Source: a virus. Taken from it: 6,156 nt of DNA. The notes below the pieces were generated by a model, which saw only the letters and a program-made list of their open reading frames with translations, was not told where the DNA came from and did not search any database. The translations under genes and the position numbers were made by a program. The first letter of the stretch is position 1, and every line of letters begins with the position of its first letter. The stretch is taken from IMG/VR virus record IMGVR_UViG_3300045988_004514, positions 1-6,156 of that record; one strand, given 5' to 3'. Below, piece by piece: positions 1 to 6,156 of the stretch.

Positions 1-141
1 GGCAAAACAAATGAATCATACCGGATGAAAAACGGTGGAAAACTCAACTTACCCATCTATTACAGAAACAAAATATTTACAGAAGAAGAACGCGAAAAAC
101 TATTCCTAGACAAAATCGAAAAGGGAATAGTCTATATACTA
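1..141. repeat. Terminal redundancy, copy 1 of an exact 141-nt direct repeat (identical to 6016..6156). It is the assembly overlap of a circular 6015-nt genome.
   Basis: Base-by-base comparison of 1..141 with 6016..6156 shows identity. The repeat lies inside one continuous reading frame (VP4), so it marks circular closure and is not a biological terminal repeat. Confidence 0.9.
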
Positions 142-408
142 GGAATCAAAATAGACCTCAAAACAGAAGAATTGAGATACTCCGGTGTACTCGTAAGCGA
201 ACGAGAACGCTGTGAAAGACTATACCACGACAATCCGAAAGAATGGGATGAAAGAAAATATCTTAACAGGCTTAAAAAACAAAGACAATGGATAGAATCT
301 AAAGCGACTATGGTCGCCAAGAAGGAAAAAAGAAAAGAAGAAAGAAGTGAAAAACGACTAAATAACGACATTGATTTATTCGCCAATCTATATTTCAACT
401 CAAATTAG
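1..408 (+). CDS. Replication initiation protein VP4, C-terminal part. It is the same gene as 5392..6156, and the complete gene is join(5392..6015,1..408), 343 aa.
   Basis: Frame 1 is open from base 1 to TAG 406..408. The first 141 nt duplicate the end of the 5392 ORF in the same frame. The track ORF 25..408 is the internal-Met remnant. The tail is basic (KKQRQWIESKATMVAKKEKRKEERSEKR). Confidence 0.9.
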   Translation, partial: GKTNESYRMKNGGKLNLPIYYRNKIFTEEEREKLFLDKIEKGIVYILGIKIDLKTEELRYSGVLVSERERCERLYHDNPKEWDERKYLNRLKKQRQWIESKATMVAKKEKRKEERSEKRLNNDIDLFANLYFNSN

Positions 409-410
409 AA

Positions 411-680
411 GCTGCGCTATAGCATGTCCAACGGGGCTCCGTGTTAACATCACACGGGTCTGTATTTACCACCTCAAGGCCGGGGGGCCAGGGTGTATAA
501 CGGGAGGGTGAGGTACACCTTTATCCGAGAGACAACTACCTTAAGACCAAGATAAGGCGTGACGTGCACCCGACCTACGGTCGTGGTGTGCGGCTTCACC
601 GATACTATGGTGCTAGTCGCTAAGGAGAGGCTCGGCGCCTCTCTGTTGCTCTAATCCTCGTTCAAACGCCACGAAGGCTT
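411..680 (+). other. GC-rich, ORF-free, hairpin-dense noncoding island. It is a candidate structured ncRNA or an ssDNA structural element (complementary-strand origin or primosome site). Its class is unknown.
   Basis: Hand count for 421..660 gives 135/240 G+C (56%), against 15/60 at 721..780, 11/60 at 841..900 and 21/60 in a VP1 sample (2041..2100). The track lists no ORF across 409..977 on either strand. I folded these local hairpins by hand: 439-444/452-457; 478-481/486-489; 491-497/514-520; 564-575/579-591 (one bulge, triloop); 590-600/609-620; 624-631/637-644; 656-660/672-677. Confidence 0.55.
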
Positions 681-728
681 AAAGATACTATTGTTAATAG
701 TTAAATCGGAAAAATAAATATCAGAAAA

Positions 729-760
729 TTTGCAGAAATCAAAAAAATCAATTATATTTG
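729..760 (+). promoter_or_regulatory. Candidate promoter for the small-ORF/VP1 transcription unit.
   Basis: TTGCAG (730..735), a 17-nt spacer and TATATT (753..758) approximate the sigma70 consensus TTGACA/TATAAT. The same DNA reads TTTG (729..732), about 20 nt, then TATATTTG (753..760), which matches the Bacteroides -33 TTTG / -7 TAnnTTTG consensus. It lies in the AT-rich noncoding region upstream of the gene cassette. Confidence 0.4.
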
Positions 761-864
761 TAGTGTCAATAAGAAAGGAGGTGAAAAATGAAAACTTAGA
801 GTTTCTTTTATAACAAAGAAAGAAAAGGAGTTTATTAGATTTTGTAAAACAAAAAAAGAAAATT

Positions 865-975
865 ATGAATACGGAACTTATAAAACTATTAGTTTACAAA
901 AATTACTTTATAGACTTTTATAATCTTGATTACGAGACATTTATAAATAAAATTGAAGAACTTAAAGACAAATAA
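865..975 (+). CDS. Possible small ORF (36 aa), hypothetical protein.
   Basis: My translation is MNTELIKLLVYKNYFIDFYNLDYETFINKIEELKDK followed by a stop. The stop at 973..975 lies 2 nt before the next ATG (978). The downstream cassette uses the same stop-2nt-ATG packing (1422/1425 and 1631/1634). Its start context AAATTATG resembles ATAATTATG at 978, 4352 and 5392. It is below the ORF-track length cutoff and I recognise no homology. Confidence 0.35.
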   Translation: MNTELIKLLVYKNYFIDFYNLDYETFINKIEELKDK

Positions 976-977
976 TT

Positions 978-1190
978 ATGGCAGCAACAAAATTTTCAGT
1001 AGTAAAAGAAAACAAAAATACAGGTGAATTACTCATTATCAACTATGCAGGTGAATGGACATACAAAACAGCACTTGCAATTGCAAAAGAAGCAAACCGA
1101 GAATTTAACGAGGAAGGATGGAGAATCGTATGTGTAATAGAGACGAAAAAATTATATCCTAACGAAAATGAAAAAACCGAAAAAGATTAG
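978..1190 (+). CDS. Hypothetical protein (70 aa), ORFan of the accessory cassette.
   Basis: Track ORF on the + strand with ATAATTATG start context, tightly packed with its neighbours. I recognise no motif. Confidence 0.55.
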   Translation: MAATKFSVVKENKNTGELLIINYAGEWTYKTALAIAKEANREFNEEGWRIVCVIETKKLYPNENEKTEKD

Positions 1191-1422
1191 AAAATATGAA
1201 GCAGAAGGACATATTTTCAATACATTTCAGGAGCTAAAAAATTACGTGTACTTCAACACGTCAATAAAAATGAAGAAAATATGTTATGAACTAGATGAAG
1301 ACGTTATTACAAAAAAATACGTCTTCACAAAACAAGAAAGGAGGTTAATATGTGAAAAAACTTTTGACAAAGATGAACAAGATTTAAAAGAATGGAATCA
1401 AAAACAGTTTAAATTATTTTAA
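1168..1422 (+). CDS. Hypothetical protein (84 aa), basic N-terminus MKKPKKIRKY.
   Basis: Track ORF on the + strand that overlaps the preceding ORF by 23 nt in another frame, which is typical microvirus gene packing. I recognise no motif. Confidence 0.5.
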   Translation: MKKPKKIRKYEAEGHIFNTFQELKNYVYFNTSIKMKKICYELDEDVITKKYVFTKQERRLICEKTFDKDEQDLKEWNQKQFKLF

Positions 1423-1424
1423 AC

Positions 1425-1631
1425 ATGAAAATTACAGGTAACCAATGGGTAGAAATCATTCGAGCTATCAGTACGGCAATCATTGCTATAATTACGACCT
1501 TATGTGTACAGTCGTGTACAATGAGCCTAAGCGTAAGCAAAAACAATCAAAACTCAACGCAAAAGACCGAACAAACAACAACGTCAAGCGTTGATAGTAC
1601 ACACATTAATATTAATCCTAAAAACTATTAA
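1425..1631 (+). CDS. Small membrane-anchored protein (68 aa). It is a candidate lysis, superinfection-exclusion or lipoprotein-like factor.
   Basis: The N-terminal hydrophobic segment WVEIIRAISTAIIAIITTLCV is followed by VQSC (two Cys residues just after the helix). The tail is polar and rich in S/T/N/Q. The ATG lies 2 nt after the upstream stop. Confidence 0.6.
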   Translation: MKITGNQWVEIIRAISTAIIAIITTLCVQSCTMSLSVSKNNQNSTQKTEQTTTSSVDSTHININPKNY

Positions 1632-1633
1632 AA

Positions 1634-1900
1634 ATGGAAAGAGAATTTAACGACATGAAAGATGTATTCAGAGTATTACCAACAACTCAAGAAGAAAATG
1701 AATTCATGATTGTGATTGGAAAACATTTGGCAACAACTGAAAAGTTTCCAACACGTGAAGCAGCAGAAGAAATAATCAACTCTATAAATTGGAATCTAGT
1801 TGCAGCAATGATATATGCATGTAAAGAGGCAGACGAATACGAAAAGAAACTTAAACGTTCTGCAAAAAAGATTGACAACAACACTAAAAAGGAGGGCTAA
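1634..1900 (+). CDS. Hypothetical protein (88 aa) with a basic C-terminal tail (KKLKRSAKKIDNNTKKEG).
   Basis: Track ORF on the + strand. The ATG lies 2 nt after the upstream stop, and its own stop lies 3 nt before the VP1 ATG. Confidence 0.55.
   Translation: MEREFNDMKDVFRVLPTTQEENEFMIVIGKHLATTEKFPTREAAEEIINSINWNLVAAMIYACKEADEYEKKLKRSAKKIDNNTKKEG
1889..1895 (+). promoter_or_regulatory. Shine-Dalgarno-like site (AAGGAGG) for VP1.
   Basis: AAGGAGG sits 8 nt upstream of ATG 1904. VP1 is the only long gene in the genome with a canonical SD. Confidence 0.6.
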
Positions 1901-1903
1901 ACC

Positions 1904-3859
1904 ATGGGAATACAAAAAAATATTGGTAAAAATACCATAGGAGACAATCAAAAAATGTCGGTCAGTCTGCATGACTACCAAATGTCAACGCACGATTTAT
2001 CAACAATCGTAAGAAACACTCAAAGCCCTGGGACACTAGTACCAAACTTATGTTTGGTAGGACAAAAAGGAGATACATACGACATTGATATAGATGCGAA
2101 TGTACTGACACATCCGACGACGGGTCCATTATTCGGCTCATTCAAATTAGAACACCATATTTATACAGCACCTGTAAGATTATACAACAGTTGGCTACAT
2201 AACAACCGTACAAAAATCGGTCTGAATATGGCACAAGTAAAACTACCTCAAATAACGGTAGCATTAAATGCATCATACGATAATGCAATAACAGAGGACA
2301 ACCAATGGACACAAGTAAACCCAAGTTGCCTACTAGCATATTTGGGAATCAGAGGTTATGCAAACCTATCGGGGGTTCCAACAAAAACGGCAACAAAAAA
2401 CGCAGTGCCAATCCTTGCATATTACGACATATTCAAAAACTTTTATGCAAACACGCAAGAAGATAATTTCTATATTATCGGAGCAGCATTGCAATTAAAC
2501 AAAATCTCGAGAGTAACACCAGCCGGCAACGAGGCATCAATACCATTACAAAACACGTACATAATGGAAGATGGACTACAATACCAAATAAGCGACGTTA
2601 ACGACGACATACTAGATTATATAGAAGTACGTTGGCAAACCTCAAACGGTGGACCTGCAAACACTACAAAACTATCAAAAATTGCAGACGAAATACGAGT
2701 ATCAGGAACAACCGCAACATTTACGGCAGCAACAAAAAAAGCAACAGGTGCAGAGTATATAAGAATATACTCCATACAGTCAAACGAATCAACAGCGCTA
2801 AAAGAAATCGCATTAGAAAACCTTGATACAATCAGGGATAAAATACTAATGACCGCAGGTGATACAGTATTTGATATAGGAAGCCAAACAGCAAGCGTAG
2901 AGCCGTTCAACTCATTCACAAAAAGACTAACACAAACAAATAAACTGTATTCAACTATTCCACAATTCGGACTATGTCTAAAAACATACAACAGCGATCA
3001 GTTCCAAAATTGGATTAATACGGAATGGATAGACGGAGTAGATGGAATCAACGAAGCAAGTGCGGTAGATGTTTCAGACGGTACATTATCAATAGATGCC
3101 TTAAACCTATCACAAAAAGTATACAACTTCCTTAACAGAGTCGCAGTAAGCGGAGGTACTTACAGAGATTGGTTGGAAACAGTATACACAGGCGGTAACT
3201 ACATGGAAAGATGTGAAACACCTATGTTCGAAGGTGGCGTAAGCCAAGAAATCATATTCCAAGAAGTAATAAGCAACAGCGCATCCGAAAATGAACCGCT
3301 AGGAACACTAGCCGGACGAGGTGTAACAACAGGACGGCAAAAAGGCGGACATATCCGTATCAAAGTGACAGAACCATGTTACATTATAAGCATTTGCTCA
3401 ATTACTCCGAGAATCGATTACGGACAGGGTAACACATGGGATACATATCTAGAAACCATGGACGATTGGCACAAACCAGCACTGGACGGAATCGGGTACC
3501 AAGACTCAACAAACGGAGAGCGTGCATGGTGGACGGACTACTATACAGCAGATGCAGACTTAAAACGCACGTCAGCAGGTAAAACGGTGGCTTGGCTGAA
3601 CTACATGACAAACGTCAACAGAACATTCGGAAATTTTGCGCCTGGGATGAACGAGAGTTTCATGGTATTGAATAGAAACTACTCAATGAACAATGCAGGT
3701 GAACCACAAATCGAGGACTTAACAACATACATAGACCCGGTAAAATTCAACTACATATTTGCAGATGCAAATCTAGACGCTATGAACTTTTGGGTACAAA
3801 CAAGATTTGGCATAAAAGTAAGACGTTTAATCAGTGCAAAACAAATTCCTAACTTATAA
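1904..3859 (+). CDS. Major capsid protein VP1 (phiX174 F-like, Phage_F fold), 651 aa.
   Basis: It is the longest ORF. It carries conserved microvirus capsid signatures: N-terminal HDLS...GTLVP...KGDTYDIDIDANV, YTAPVRLYNSW, AVPILAYYDIFKNFYAN, and SGGTYRDWLETVYTGGN...ETPMFEGG. Confidence 0.95.
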   Translation: MGIQKNIGKNTIGDNQKMSVSLHDYQMSTHDLSTIVRNTQSPGTLVPNLCLVGQKGDTYDIDIDANVLTHPTTGPLFGSFKLEHHIYTAPVRLYNSWLHNNRTKIGLNMAQVKLPQITVALNASYDNAITEDNQWTQVNPSCLLAYLGIRGYANLSGVPTKTATKNAVPILAYYDIFKNFYANTQEDNFYIIGAALQLNKISRVTPAGNEASIPLQNTYIMEDGLQYQISDVNDDILDYIEVRWQTSNGGPANTTKLSKIADEIRVSGTTATFTAATKKATGAEYIRIYSIQSNESTALKEIALENLDTIRDKILMTAGDTVFDIGSQTASVEPFNSFTKRLTQTNKLYSTIPQFGLCLKTYNSDQFQNWINTEWIDGVDGINEASAVDVSDGTLSIDALNLSQKVYNFLNRVAVSGGTYRDWLETVYTGGNYMERCETPMFEGGVSQEIIFQEVISNSASENEPLGTLAGRGVTTGRQKGGHIRIKVTEPCYIISICSITPRIDYGQGNTWDTYLETMDDWHKPALDGIGYQDSTNGERAWWTDYYTADADLKRTSAGKTVAWLNYMTNVNRTFGNFAPGMNESFMVLNRNYSMNNAGEPQIEDLTTYIDPVKFNYIFADANLDAMNFWVQTRFGIKVRRLISAKQIPNL

Positions 3860-3872
3860 ATTTTATTACATT

Positions 3873-4190
3873 ATGAAATACTCAAAACCAACAGGAAACA
3901 AAGGTAGATTAAAATCAATCGAAATCTACGAAGGTGAAAGCATTGAAACAAAATGCGCAAGAATCCTACAAAACAAAGAGCCAATTACAGACACAGCACC
4001 AATTATCTATACAGCAAAAGAAGATGGTGTACTACCTGCATATAATATCAGAACGGACAGGTTTGATATAGCAATGGATGCTTATGACAAAATAACAAGA
4101 AGTTCAGCTAAAAAAGAACAGGCGGTAAAACCGGAAGATTTTGGAAATGTACCTGACAAAACACAGGGAGGTTCACCTAGTGAAAACTAA
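3873..4190 (+). CDS. Hypothetical protein (105 aa) between VP1 and VP2, in the position of a scaffolding or small structural protein. Its function is unsupported.
   Basis: The track ORF is 3834..4190. I prefer the internal ATG at 3873 (MKYSKPTG...) because it does not overlap VP1 and has an ATTATG context like the other genes. I do not recognise the gokushovirus VP3 signature in it. Confidence 0.6.
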   Translation: MKYSKPTGNKGRLKSIEIYEGESIETKCARILQNKEPITDTAPIIYTAKEDGVLPAYNIRTDRFDIAMDAYDKITRSSAKKEQAVKPEDFGNVPDKTQGGSPSEN

Positions 4191-4194
4191 ACTG

Positions 4195-4214
4195 TTTAGA
4201 GAAGTATCTCTAAA
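4195..4214 (+). other. Perfect 8-bp stem-loop (TTTAGAGA-agta-TCTCTAAA), 5 nt after the 3873..4190 stop codon.
   Basis: The inverted repeat is read directly from the sequence. No T-tract follows, so it is not a classic intrinsic terminator. Confidence 0.5.
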
Positions 4215-4217
4215 GCC

Positions 4218-4291
4218 TTGTAGGTAACAAGCACTTCGGAGTATTTGTAAAGACAAAATACTTTAAAATACACGAAAGTACGCACCTACAA
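4218..4291 (+). other. Composite 74-nt rod-like hairpin in the VP2-upstream intergenic region.
   Basis: The outer stem is a perfect 8 bp, TTGTAGGT (4218..4225) with ACCTACAA (4284..4291). The middle stem pairs 4231..4238 with 4273..4283 (8 bp with bulges). The apical stem pairs 4240..4248 with 4253..4262 (9 bp, one bulge, loop AAAG). All pairings are hand-folded. Confidence 0.5.
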
Positions 4292-4315
4292 TTTATTATC
4301 AAGTAATATGAATAA

Positions 4316-4335
4316 CGCTTTGAAACATCAAAGCG
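4316..4335 (+). other. Perfect 8-bp stem-loop (CGCTTTGA-aaca-TCAAAGCG), 17 nt upstream of the VP2 start.
   Basis: The inverted repeat is read directly from the sequence. No T-tract follows. Confidence 0.5.
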
Positions 4336-4351
4336 CGAAATGTAAATAATT

Positions 4352-5386
4352 ATGCTAGGAACTATTATCGGTATAGGAGCGGCAGCCGGAAAGGCAATCG
4401 CTAACAATAACGCCAAGAATGAGCAAAAAAAAGAAAATAGGGAGTTGATGAAATACCAAGCAGATTTGAATCAACAACAAGCCTATTATAGCACAGGATT
4501 GGCAAAGGATTTGTGGGACTACACAAATTATGAGAATACCATAAAACATATAAAAGCGGCAGGGCTAAGCCCGTCGCTAATATATGGCGGTGGCGGTGGC
4601 GGTGGAAGCACTAGCGGAGGAGGCCAAGCAAGCGGAGTAGGAATGCCAAGCAAAACAGGAACGGAGGCAGGAATACAAGCACAAGGAATGGCACTCCAGC
4701 TAGCAAACGTAGCAAGCCAAACCAGGCTAAACGAAAGCCAGGCAAACAAAAATGAAGCGGAAGCCGAAAAGACTAGAGGAGTAGATACCAAAGCGCAAGA
4801 AGCTACAATTGATAACCTAATAGCCCAGACTTCAAATGAAAAAGTGAAGAAAGGACTCATATTGGGACAAATCAGAGTAGCAGATGCGGAAGAGGAACTT
4901 AAACGAAATACTGCCGATTGGACAAAAGAAAAAACCGATGAAACCCGATGGAATATCAAAAGCCTACAAAAAGGAATTGATAAACTAATTGAAGAAGTCA
5001 ACGGAATGAAACTCGACAACGAGTTAAAAGAGCGGACAATCGACAATAAAGTAAGAGAAAGCTCATTAACACTCCAAAACCTGATGGCTGAAATATTACT
5101 CAAAGGAAGCCAGAAAAAAGTCAATGAAGAGCAAGCAAAAGCAATTCCAGCAGAAATTCTACAAGGATGGGAAGACCTTACAAAAAAAGGGAAAGCACTA
5201 ATCATCCAAAGAGAACAGATGGAAGCCTATGTACAAGATGTATTCAATAGATACGACTTGGGCAAAAAAGGCCTGGACATTGAAGAACAAAAACTCGTCA
5301 AAGACATTGTACTCGGAATGCTAGAAATCGCATCGAAAGGTGCAGGAGCAGCACTAGGGGCAAAAGTAGGTAAAACAGGTTTTTAA
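4352..5386 (+). CDS. Minor capsid / DNA pilot protein VP2 (phiX174 H-like), 344 aa.
   Basis: It has a hydrophobic Gly/Ala-rich N-terminus (MLGTIIGIGAAAGKAIA). The motif AAGLSPSLIYGGGGGGG resembles the AGLNP..Y-polyGly signature of gokusho/alpavirus VP2. The C-terminal half is long, charged and predicted helical or coiled-coil. Its position between the capsid and replication genes fits. Confidence 0.85.
   Translation: MLGTIIGIGAAAGKAIANNNAKNEQKKENRELMKYQADLNQQQAYYSTGLAKDLWDYTNYENTIKHIKAAGLSPSLIYGGGGGGGSTSGGGQASGVGMPSKTGTEAGIQAQGMALQLANVASQTRLNESQANKNEAEAEKTRGVDTKAQEATIDNLIAQTSNEKVKKGLILGQIRVADAEEELKRNTADWTKEKTDETRWNIKSLQKGIDKLIEEVNGMKLDNELKERTIDNKVRESSLTLQNLMAEILLKGSQKKVNEEQAKAIPAEILQGWEDLTKKGKALIIQREQMEAYVQDVFNRYDLGKKGLDIEEQKLVKDIVLGMLEIASKGAGAALGAKVGKTGF
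4586..4606 (+). repeat. In-frame (GGCGGT)x3 + GGA microsatellite encoding Gly7 inside VP2.
   Basis: GGC GGT GGC GGT GGC GGT GGA is read in the VP2 frame. Confidence 0.85.
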
Positions 5387-5391
5387 TAATT

Positions 5392-6156
5392 ATGTGTCTA
5401 TATCCTAAACTCATACCAAATAAGCGGTACCTGCCAACAAAAAAGAATGGCGGGATACCGCCTGTTTGTCCTGACGAAAGGTTACGTTATGTAACAGCAG
5501 CATGCGGGGACTGTTACGAGTGCAGGAAACAAAAGCAAAGACAATGGGTAGTAAGAATGTCAGAGGAAAATAGACAAACACCAAATGCGTATTTCCTAAC
5601 ACTGACAATCGATGATAAATCCTACAAGCAAATCAAACAAAAATACAAGTTAAAAGACAATAACGATATTGCAACAAAAGCTATAAGACTATGCCTAGAA
5701 AGAGTACGAAAACAAACCGGAAAATCAATAAAACATTGGTTTATTACAGAACTCGGACACGAGAAAACAGAAAGATTACATCTTCATGGGATAGTATGGG
5801 GCCTAGGAAATGGAGAAAAAGTAACGAACAATTGGAAATACGGAATCACATTCACCGGATATTTCGTGAATGAAAAAACTATCAACTACATTACAAAATA
5901 CATGCTAAAGGTAGACGAAAAGCACCCAAAATTCAGAGGAAAGGTGTTATGCTCTGCCGGAATAGGCTCAGGCTACCTCAAACGAGAAGATGCCAAAAGG
6001 CATGTATATATCCCAGGCAAAACAAATGAATCATACCGGATGAAAAACGGTGGAAAACTCAACTTACCCATCTATTACAGAAACAAAATATTTACAGAAG
6101 AAGAACGCGAAAAACTATTCCTAGACAAAATCGAAAAGGGAATAGTCTATATACTA
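5392..6156 (+). CDS. Replication initiation protein VP4 (phiX174 A-like HUH rolling-circle endonuclease). This is the N-terminal and central part, open at the window end, and it continues at 1..408 on the circle.
   Basis: My translation from ATG 5392 in frame 1 has no stop before the window end: MCLYPKLIPNKRYLPTKKNGGIPPVCPDERLRYVTAACGDCYECRKQKQRQWVVRMSEE.... It contains the Cys cluster CGDCYECRKQKQRQW typical of gokusho/alpavirus VP4. It also has RCR motif I FLTLT, the HUH motif LHLHGIVW and the catalytic Tyr motif YITKYMLK. The ORF track omits it only because it lacks a stop inside the window. Confidence 0.93.
   Translation, partial: MCLYPKLIPNKRYLPTKKNGGIPPVCPDERLRYVTAACGDCYECRKQKQRQWVVRMSEENRQTPNAYFLTLTIDDKSYKQIKQKYKLKDNNDIATKAIRLCLERVRKQTGKSIKHWFITELGHEKTERLHLHGIVWGLGNGEKVTNNWKYGITFTGYFVNEKTINYITKYMLKVDEKHPKFRGKVLCSAGIGSGYLKREDAKRHVYIPGKTNESYRMKNGGKLNLPIYYRNKIFTEEEREKLFLDKIEKGIVYIL
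6016..6156. repeat. Terminal redundancy, copy 2 (identical to 1..141).
   Basis: Same comparison as copy 1. The offset between copies is 6015 nt, which is divisible by 3 and so preserves the VP4 frame across the junction. Confidence 0.9.

Follow-up and report, generated by a model that had tools for sequence, protein, structure and literature searches.

Why would a small, AT-rich phage genome carry a GC-rich block of about 280 nt that encodes no evident protein? The question is posed by positions 412–692 of IMG/VR virus record IMGVR_UViG_3300045988_004514, of which positions 1 to 6,156 were analyzed (the window, 6,156 nt in all). The window looks like a complete microvirus genome with an overall G+C content of 37.6%, and it is 85% identical to Microviridae sp. 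PV067927, which comes from a human sample. An earlier reading made from the letters alone (the sequence-only reading) had pointed to a GC-rich island just after the stop codon of the replication initiator gene VP4, and its counts were reproduced exactly: 135 of 240 positions are G or C at 421–660 (56.2%), against 25% at 721–780 and 18.3% at 841–900. The answer that we favor, at a probability of about one half, is that the block would be a cis-acting replication element, locked to strand polarity and dependent on host factors, and as such a new type of complementary (minus)-strand origin, akin to the single-strand origins (SSOs) that serve rolling-circle plasmids. What the data support directly is a family of such elements, their fold, their restriction to microviruses, and a lock between the element and the strand composition of the genomes that carry it. 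The element as a whole is delimited as follows.

412–692, + strand: whole element, from RRGGCUGCGC to AAAGAUACUAUU; its ends are the limits of homology among the window, PV067927, and inverted-orientation relatives such as contig L009.

These limits were refined from the span first proposed, 411–680, by alignment to relatives that carry the element inverted. So delimited, it has a G+C content of 54.1%, compared with 20.7% in the adjoining 285 nt, and it lies in the main intergenic region next to the replication initiator (Rep) gene. A recount of open reading frames (ORFs) gave none longer than 46 aa that overlaps 409–977; those within the island start at TTG or GTG. Single-sequence folding energy was only marginally below that of shuffled controls (RNA folding of the + strand, z = -2.5 for 405–690 and -1.9 for 412–692; DNA folding, z = -2.1 on either strand), and the evidence beyond chance consequently rests on conservation and covariation. 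The sequence-only reading had staked its premise, that the island is functional rather than inert, on folding energy together with conservation or covariation. The energy is only slightly better than that of shuffles, but conservation and covariation were both found, and on these grounds we judge the premise to be right.

The family is considerable. A BLASTN search with the island matched its 3' half to otherwise unalignable microviruses in samples from humans, rats, and lemurs, and pattern scans on the invariant core gave 36 viral contigs, more viral contigs with looser patterns, and 78 metagenome contigs. In total, 119 distinct element sequences were recovered (the family thus has at least 119 members), 105 of them at less than 95% identity. 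All credible members lie in microvirus-like contigs of approximately 1–11 kb, with the full-length ones at approximately 5–7 kb or consisting of concatemers or misassemblies of such genomes. Matches of the looser patterns in larger viral contigs and in a 6.6-kb contig (L048) were set aside as chance, as the rest of the element is missing there. A covariance model of the 3' domain re-found the element wherever it was expected and had no match in phiX174, Chp2, phiMH2K, Dulem virus 214, or relatives whose VP1 is at most 43% identical to that of the window. Each complete genome recovered whose VP1 shares 49% or more identity with that of the window has one copy and no more, and this single-copy presence makes the element look essential. 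In Dulem virus 214 (L173), positions 4661–4800, at the same site after Rep, hold a different GC-rich hairpin island (GGAGCATATCGCTCC, CCCCTAAAGGGG) in place of the element, and to judge from its letters this may be an alternative element type.

Two sources that could have accounted for the island more simply, a known RNA family and ordinary host coding sequence, had both been raised beforehand, and neither turned up. A cmscan of 300–1000 against Rfam 15 (4,227 families, both strands, E up to 10) gave nothing within the island and two chance-level matches, both beyond it, and ARAGORN detected no tRNA or tmRNA gene in the whole window. A full-text literature search returned no description of the element. 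Absent from Rfam and from the searchable literature, the element is previously uncatalogued. The sequence-only reading had further suggested a host-derived fragment or a XerCD/dif-type attachment site, and dif-mediated integration has indeed been proposed for Bacteroidetes microviruses (PMC3091885). However, two degenerate core patterns had no match in 185,579 bacterial and archaeal species genomes, which argues against both a host source and integrated copies. None of the 72,556 plasmids in PLSDB matched either, the element is 10 times longer than the 28-bp dif site, and the only contig in which phage and bacterial genes are joined looks chimeric. In that contig (L124, 1–10093), bacterial genes of 60–64% G+C (a PEP-utilising enzyme, a patatin, and a glycosyltransferase) sit beside a 35% G+C microvirus segment with Rep and the element; a chimeric assembly is the probable explanation, a truncated provirus the alternative. 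We therefore reject the host-fragment and attachment-site reading, as we do membership of any known RNA family.

Attempts to identify the host from long contigs were likewise given up, given that L124 is a probable chimera, L096 a misassembly, and L121, L143, and L150 concatemers. As an aside, the 10.5-kb contig L096 is built of two inverted 5.1-kb arms flanking a unique center of 290 nt (5103–5392) that is the element itself; it is an inverted-repeat misassembly or amplification chimera centered on the structured region.

The strongest structural evidence comes from the 3' half, 565–679, whose fold was derived from mutual information and pair counts and checked on a MAFFT alignment (A3) of 48 sequences at less than 93% identity. 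Covariation supports five helices and two pseudoknot contacts. Over 33 pairs, 96.2% of alignment cells are paired, compared with 80.2% in shuffles and 29–53% when the partners are slid, and compensatory changes on both sides occur in 19 of the 33. Pairing and compensatory change so far above the controls indicate an intrastrand structure under selection, with the following parts.

565–575 with 579–590, + strand: Stem I, UGCACCCGACC / GGUCG(U)GGUGUG, with U584 bulged.

591–594 with 598–601, + strand: Stem II, a mini-hairpin CGGC-UUC-GCCG; the window has C594.A598.

602–623, + strand: linker and hairpin III, the highly conserved GAUAYYAWGGU, a 2-bp stem (612–613 with 619–620) with loop UAGNC, and then UAA.

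624–631 with 637–644, + strand: hairpin IV, with a purine-rich 5' strand GGAGAGGC and a pyrimidine-rich 3' strand GCCUCUCU.

649–652, + strand: CUCU, a mirror repeat of the 3' strand of hairpin IV, in parallel covariation with 625–628/629.

634–635 (loop of hairpin IV) with 656–657, + strand: first pseudoknot contact (PK1), from covariation.

658–661 with 671–674, + strand: hairpin V, (U/C)CGU / ACG(A/G), with loop UCAAACGCC.

665 and 668–670 (loop of hairpin V) with 676–679, + strand: second pseudoknot contact (PK2), from covariation.

680–692, + strand: AT-rich conserved tail, UAAAGAUACUAUU; other subtypes have ...ACYRACUA... or a hairpin with loop ACUAU(C/U)AAUA.

Substitutions that preserve pairing are found in every helix. 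In Stem I, A568–U587 is AU in 111 sequences, UA in 5, and GC in 3, C567–G588 is CG in 112 and UA in 5, and pairs 573–581 and 574–580 each show four pair types; the copy in Tortoise microvirus 13 adds a further compensatory change. Pair 593–599 of Stem II is GC in 78 sequences, CG in 22, and AU in 17. Even the short hairpin III covaries (612–620: GC 102, AU 13, GU 4; 613–619: CG 113, UA 2). Changes on both sides are seen in four of the seven pairs of hairpin IV, while in hairpin V the counts are CG 62, GC 48, and UA 3 at 658–674 and UA 86 and CG 26 at 661–671. The pseudoknot contacts vary too: PK1 has GC 70, CG 29, UA 11, and AU 2 at 635–656 and UA 45, CG 23, GC 9, and AU 3 at 634–657, and PK2 has CG 95 and GC 19 at 669–677 and AU 68 and GC 34 at 665–679. 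Approximately 58 of the 154 columns of the 3'-domain alignment are invariant or nearly so, many of them unpaired.

A further feature lies at 649–652. Read in parallel with the purine strand of hairpin IV, these positions are 97.4% complementary (71.6% in shuffles), with a covariation score of 0.758, while the antiparallel register fails at 52.8%. This pattern is what base triples (U.A-U and C.G-C) in an H-type pseudoknot would be expected to produce. Covariation thus reveals both a pairing of the loop with the 3' tail and an isosteric third strand, the hallmarks of an H-type pseudoknot with base triples; the triplex itself is putative. At 629/652, inversion of the duplex pair leaves the Watson–Crick complementarity of the third base intact, a behavior that simple Hoogsteen triples would not lead one to expect. 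The covariation pattern would look no different if the triplex were one of DNA, on either strand.

Several of the hairpins in the sequence-only reading survive in this fold: those drawn at 564–591, 624–644, and 656–677 correspond to Stem I (565–590), hairpin IV (624–644), and hairpin V (658–674). The one drawn at 590–620 does not stand as a single hairpin and splits into Stem II (591–601) and the 2-bp hairpin III. Two more, at 439–457 and 478–489, are present in the window but sit in a part that varies between subtypes. A three-way junction predicted by RNAalifold (GCACC/GGUGC closing Stem I, with a UGGUGU/AUAUCA helix) was rejected, given that the variants GGUAC, GGAGC, and AAGUGC are uncompensated and that GCGCCC/GGCGU and GUUCCC/GGAAU compensate inside Stem I instead. 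Two observations stand on their own. Positions 605–606 in the near-invariant linker read UC in 74 sequences and CU in 40, swapped between subfamilies, and a search for a partner covarying with this swap found none. In antisense-group contigs (L006 at approximately 1590–1615, L012, and L164; the groups are defined below), the tail 3' of PK2 forms a 4-bp covarying stem, AUCG/CGAU or ACCG/CGGU, with loop ACTAT(C/T)AATA(A/G).

A fold of this kind immediately raises the prospect of a functional RNA. The element could be a novel structured non-coding RNA gene of approximately 280 nt, transcribed as its own unit from the double-stranded replicative form and owing its action to its tertiary fold, with which it might, for instance, bind or mimic a conserved host machine, or serve as an anti-defense or regulatory RNA. 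The five covarying helices, the two pseudoknot contacts, and the mirror-repeat strand with its triple-like covariation all suit an RNA, as do the long invariant unpaired stretches (e.g., GAUAYYAAGGU, UAGNC, and GUAUA.CGGGA) and an invariant tandem U.G/G.U at 565–566/589–590. The lack of any match among the Rfam families or of a tRNA or tmRNA would fit a novel class. However, the element brings neither promoter nor terminator with it; the flanks upstream of it are unrelated between subtypes (the coding end of Rep, a long inverted repeat, or AT-rich DNA), a sigma-70-like match at 365–394 is within chance expectation, and the wobble pairs are ambiguous as to strand. The orientation of the element bears on this reading from both sides.

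Of the 95 contigs that reach 4.5 kb or more, 53 have the element running with the genes (sense) and 42 against them (antisense), and Phage_F and REP_ORF2-G2P Pfam matches in the antisense genomes confirm that their genes truly lie on the opposite strand. Since the element ignores gene direction, it is no cis-acting mRNA element; an autonomous transcription unit, by comparison, could sit in either orientation. What the element does follow is strand composition. At four-fold degenerate sites, the coding strand of the sense group is 64.5% A, 13.8% T, 11.4% C, and 10.3% G, and that of the antisense group is its mirror image, with 65.8% T, 14.0% A, 11.1% C, and 9.1% G. The AT skew of the coding strand, scored in 45 sense and 39 antisense genomes, is +0.65 +/- 0.04 in the former and -0.65 +/- 0.08 in the latter. 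In both groups, then, the element strand is the A-rich strand, at approximately 65% A at four-fold sites over the 84 genomes scored; the window phage belongs to the A-rich (sense) group. Parsimony on a neighbor-joining tree of the element gives five switches of orientation, each of them consistent with the strand lock. There is no reason for an RNA gene to track strand asymmetry, yet the asymmetry is tracked in both groups and through the five switches, and we regard a free-standing RNA gene, the main rival of the reading favored above, as less likely than not. Of the sequence-only proposal of a structured RNA or ribozyme, the RNA-like features are borne out; self-cleavage is conceivable, but nothing supports a ribozyme.

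The mirror-image composition of neutral sites is most simply explained by one mutational polarity shared by all of these genomes, with gene blocks inverted relative to it. Element subtypes cut across the two orientation groups; the window's own subtype (cluster 16) includes 32 sense and 16 antisense members. The phages concerned are otherwise distant, with VP1 only 21–24% identical between the groups. The window's VP4 matches the Reps of the antisense group with a best E value of only 0.002, while those Reps are 39% identical to one another. Near-identical elements therefore serve phages with almost unrelated Reps, which speaks against recognition by a specific Rep. A Rep-dependent viral-strand origin or a packaging signal has some points in its favor: the element adjoins the Rep gene, the strand lock would fit too, and some subtypes have the AT-rich tail hairpin with loop ACTAT(C/T)AATA. 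The L006 tail even contains TATTAATAAC, which we take to be 10 nt of the phiX174 viral-strand origin, and may be a candidate nick site for Rep on the element strand, or a chance match. Weighing these points together, we consider these roles, like the host-fragment and attachment-site readings, very improbable.

This leaves a complementary-strand origin as the reading that we favor. The lock to strand asymmetry, together with the single copy in complete close relatives, points to a strand-specific DNA transaction, and independence from Rep together with absence from host chromosomes speaks against both an origin specific to Rep and a source in the host. A GC-rich block in an AT-rich genome, placed between genes and beside Rep, fits the reading as well. 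After entry, the AT-rich single-stranded DNA would be coated by host single-strand-binding protein, while the GC-rich element would stay folded and recruit a host priming enzyme, which may be primase, the primosome, or RNA polymerase. The recruited enzyme would then start the complementary strand of the packaged single-stranded genome. Reliance on host factors rather than on the phage's Rep would make the element an exchangeable cassette, as SSOs are for rolling-circle plasmids, and the sharing itself suggests that the lineages involved have a common host. Orientation is locked to the asymmetry of composition and not to the genes; we infer, further, that the packaged strand can be told by this asymmetry. 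The suggestion of a complementary-strand origin in the sequence-only reading gains its strongest new support from the strand lock, the single copy, and the nearly unrelated Reps, and it remains a proposal.

A number of points weigh against this proposal. For a DNA origin, the fold is unusually elaborate; two pseudoknot contacts, triple-like covariation, and so high a proportion of invariant or near-invariant columns are more typical of a functional RNA. The cues as to which strand folds also conflict. The window's + strand is favored by invariant G.U pairs (565.590, 566.589, and 624.644) and by a lower minimum free energy (MFE) than that of the complement in 84 of 105 sequences (by 5.9 kcal/mol on average), which would suit an RNA gene as well. 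The complement is favored by A572.C582 in 35 sequences, by the form that Stem II takes there (C(GNA)G, or GCGAAGC), and by a TAGCG(T/A) that resembles a CS-6 motif. An assignment of the strand from wobble pairs was abandoned as ambiguous, with the MFE and loop-motif arguments opposed. Five switches are few (approximately p = 0.03 were orientation random), and they were counted on a neighbor-joining tree. Cultured phages disagree at four-fold sites, with 63% T in phiX174, 50% T in Chp2, and 47% A in phiMH2K, and the A-rich phiMH2K undermines any attempt to infer the packaged strand from T-richness. Finally, the textbook assumption is that all microviruses package the coding strand. Were this so throughout, an origin acting on single-stranded DNA would be unworkable in both gene orientations, and our reading consequently requires that one group of phages has genes antisense to the packaged strand.

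An intermediate possibility is that the incoming single strand serves as template for a structured pre-primer RNA encoded by the element, and that the fold of this RNA is needed to make the primer of the complementary strand. ColE1 RNA II and the primers made by RNA polymerase in filamentous phages would be functional parallels. Such an RNA would reconcile the strand lock with the RNA-like tertiary features; a T-rich packaged strand, as in phiX174 and Chp2, would template an RNA of the window's + sequence, and hairpins or inverted repeats lie directly 5' of the core in several subtypes, where they may serve as a single-strand promoter. However, this account is entirely inferential, no promoter-like duplex was recognized, and the known primer RNAs of single-stranded DNA phages and plasmid SSOs are approximately 20–30 nt long and unstructured. 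We regard it as improbable. Some involvement of RNA, of whatever kind, is plausible, though we lean against it. We also put forward a wider picture, which we consider less likely than not. Here, gut microviruses would fall into two groups whose gene blocks run in opposite directions against one shared polarity, of replication or of packaging, that the element marks, one large group, possibly the window's, being “negative-sense”. The element would then be a new pseudoknotted, triplex-containing fold, active either as folded DNA, in an origin, or as an RNA made on the packaged strand, be it a structured pre-primer or another kind.

The remaining parts of the element and its surroundings are as follows.

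412–490, + strand: subtype-variable hairpin region, with hairpins 438–443/452–457 and 478–481/486–489; its sequence differs between subtypes.

491–561, + strand: purine-rich conserved 5' core, with the motifs GGUGUAUAACGGGA (492–505), CUACCUUAAG (536–545), and GAUAAGG (551–557) in invariant or near-invariant columns.

25–408, + strand: 3' end of the replication initiator gene VP4, whose ORF wraps the ends of the window from 5374; its stop codon (406–408) is directly upstream of the element (from the ORF list and the PV067927 annotation).

729–760, + strand: promoter-like TTTG-20 nt-TATATTTG, conserved downstream of the element in sense-orientation genomes.

1904–3859: VP1, with a sub-threshold Phage_F match and a G+C content of 39.7%.

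4352–5386: homologue of the pilot protein.

In the 5' core, the evidence is of conservation. No column pair passed the covariation screen in a MAFFT alignment (A4) of this core (489–572), and a putative long-range AGGUA/UACCU pairing there, drawn by eye, was set aside. Just after the VP4 stop, 438–458 forms a terminator-like hairpin (CCGUGU...ACACGG) with a U-rich tail, which from its sequence may be a simple terminator of the VP4 transcript. On the far side, the motif at 729–760 fits what we take to be the Bacteroidetes promoter consensus (-33 TTTG, -7 TAnnTTTG), with AAGGAGGT lying 3' of it at 775–782; as a sequence motif, it suggests a host among the Bacteroidota. A test of the host by counts of Bacteroidetes promoters was dropped, as it is confounded by T-richness. 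Within the pilot-protein gene, 4528–5205 on the - strand holds a 225-aa antisense ORF starting with ATG, which probably arises from the strong skew in codon composition rather than being a gene.

For microviruses outside the phiX174/G4 group, the element offers a concrete and easily recognized candidate for the start of the complementary strand. Its lock to strand composition makes the assumption that Microviridae invariably package the coding strand directly testable, and it provides a marker of polarity, of host-sharing networks, and of recombination among very abundant phages of the human gut. If it is an RNA, it represents a new class of structured RNA with a rare triple-helix pseudoknot.

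How does the element compare with known systems? Its pseudoknot resembles those of the SAM-II and preQ1-II riboswitches, telomerase RNA, and ENE elements, in which the 3' tail of a hairpin folds back beside the purine strand before pairing with the loop. As in major-groove triple-helix H-type pseudoknots, the third base changes isosterically with the pair (U with A-U, C with G-C). The resemblance is one of fold only; Rfam gave no match to these RNAs. A group I intron was also considered, as GGUGU...GCACC could be read as P3 and CCGAU..AAGGUG..UAGACG resembles what we take to be an Azoarcus-type core. This was rejected, as there was no match to Intron_gpI (E up to 10) and GCACC pairs with GGUGU in Stem I, with compensatory changes, and not with an upstream P3 strand. 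Moreover, a position that is intergenic, and antisense in 42 of 95 genomes, leaves no exons.

Closer in setting are the complementary-strand origins of coliphages. The G4 oric hairpins (used by primase), the phiX174 primosome assembly site (PriA), and the f1/M13 minus origin (RNA polymerase) keep their fold when coated with single-strand-binding protein and bring in the host's priming enzymes. Like them, the element is a GC-rich hairpin cluster in an intergenic region of a small phage with single-stranded DNA. The reverse complement of Stem II reads C(GNA)G, with GCGAAGC in 41 of 119 sequences, and is thus a mini-hairpin of the GCGAAGC type, which we understand to have been reported in coliphage origin regions. 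However, the element is longer and more intricately folded, and its covariance model finds nothing in phiX174. Simpler structures, alongside which the phiX174 hairpin is cited, are known from reekeekee- and roodoodooviruses, where one or two intergenic hairpins of 13–64 nt adjoin Rep, show compensatory substitutions, and were tentatively proposed as the sites where synthesis of the negative strand begins (PMC9865509, section 3.8). These differ from the pseudoknotted, multi-helix core of approximately 120 nt within a 280-nt element seen here and occur in other clades; the likeness is by description, and we claim no homology.

The most instructive comparison is with the SSOs of rolling-circle plasmids (ssoA, ssoT, ssoU, and ssoW). 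These are non-coding stretches of 150–300 nt with extensive intrastrand pairing, which depend on host factors, are sensitive in their function to orientation relative to the displaced strand, and are exchanged as cassettes between replicons with unrelated Reps. There are differences: the element has no sequence similarity to any PLSDB plasmid and far more invariant positions, and to our knowledge a pseudoknot with triple-like covariation has not been described for SSOs. The complement of 616–624, the most conserved loop, contains TAGCG(T/A), presumably the CS-6 consensus of ssoA, although this straddles the stem instead of lying in the terminal loop and may be a chance match (approximately 0.3 expected). 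In its general properties, the element nonetheless resembles an SSO, being non-coding, with an intrastrand structure under selection, and shared like a cassette, independently of Rep, across lineages. Its distribution corresponds to that of the plasmid origins, and its strand lock would do so too if strand composition marks the packaged strand.

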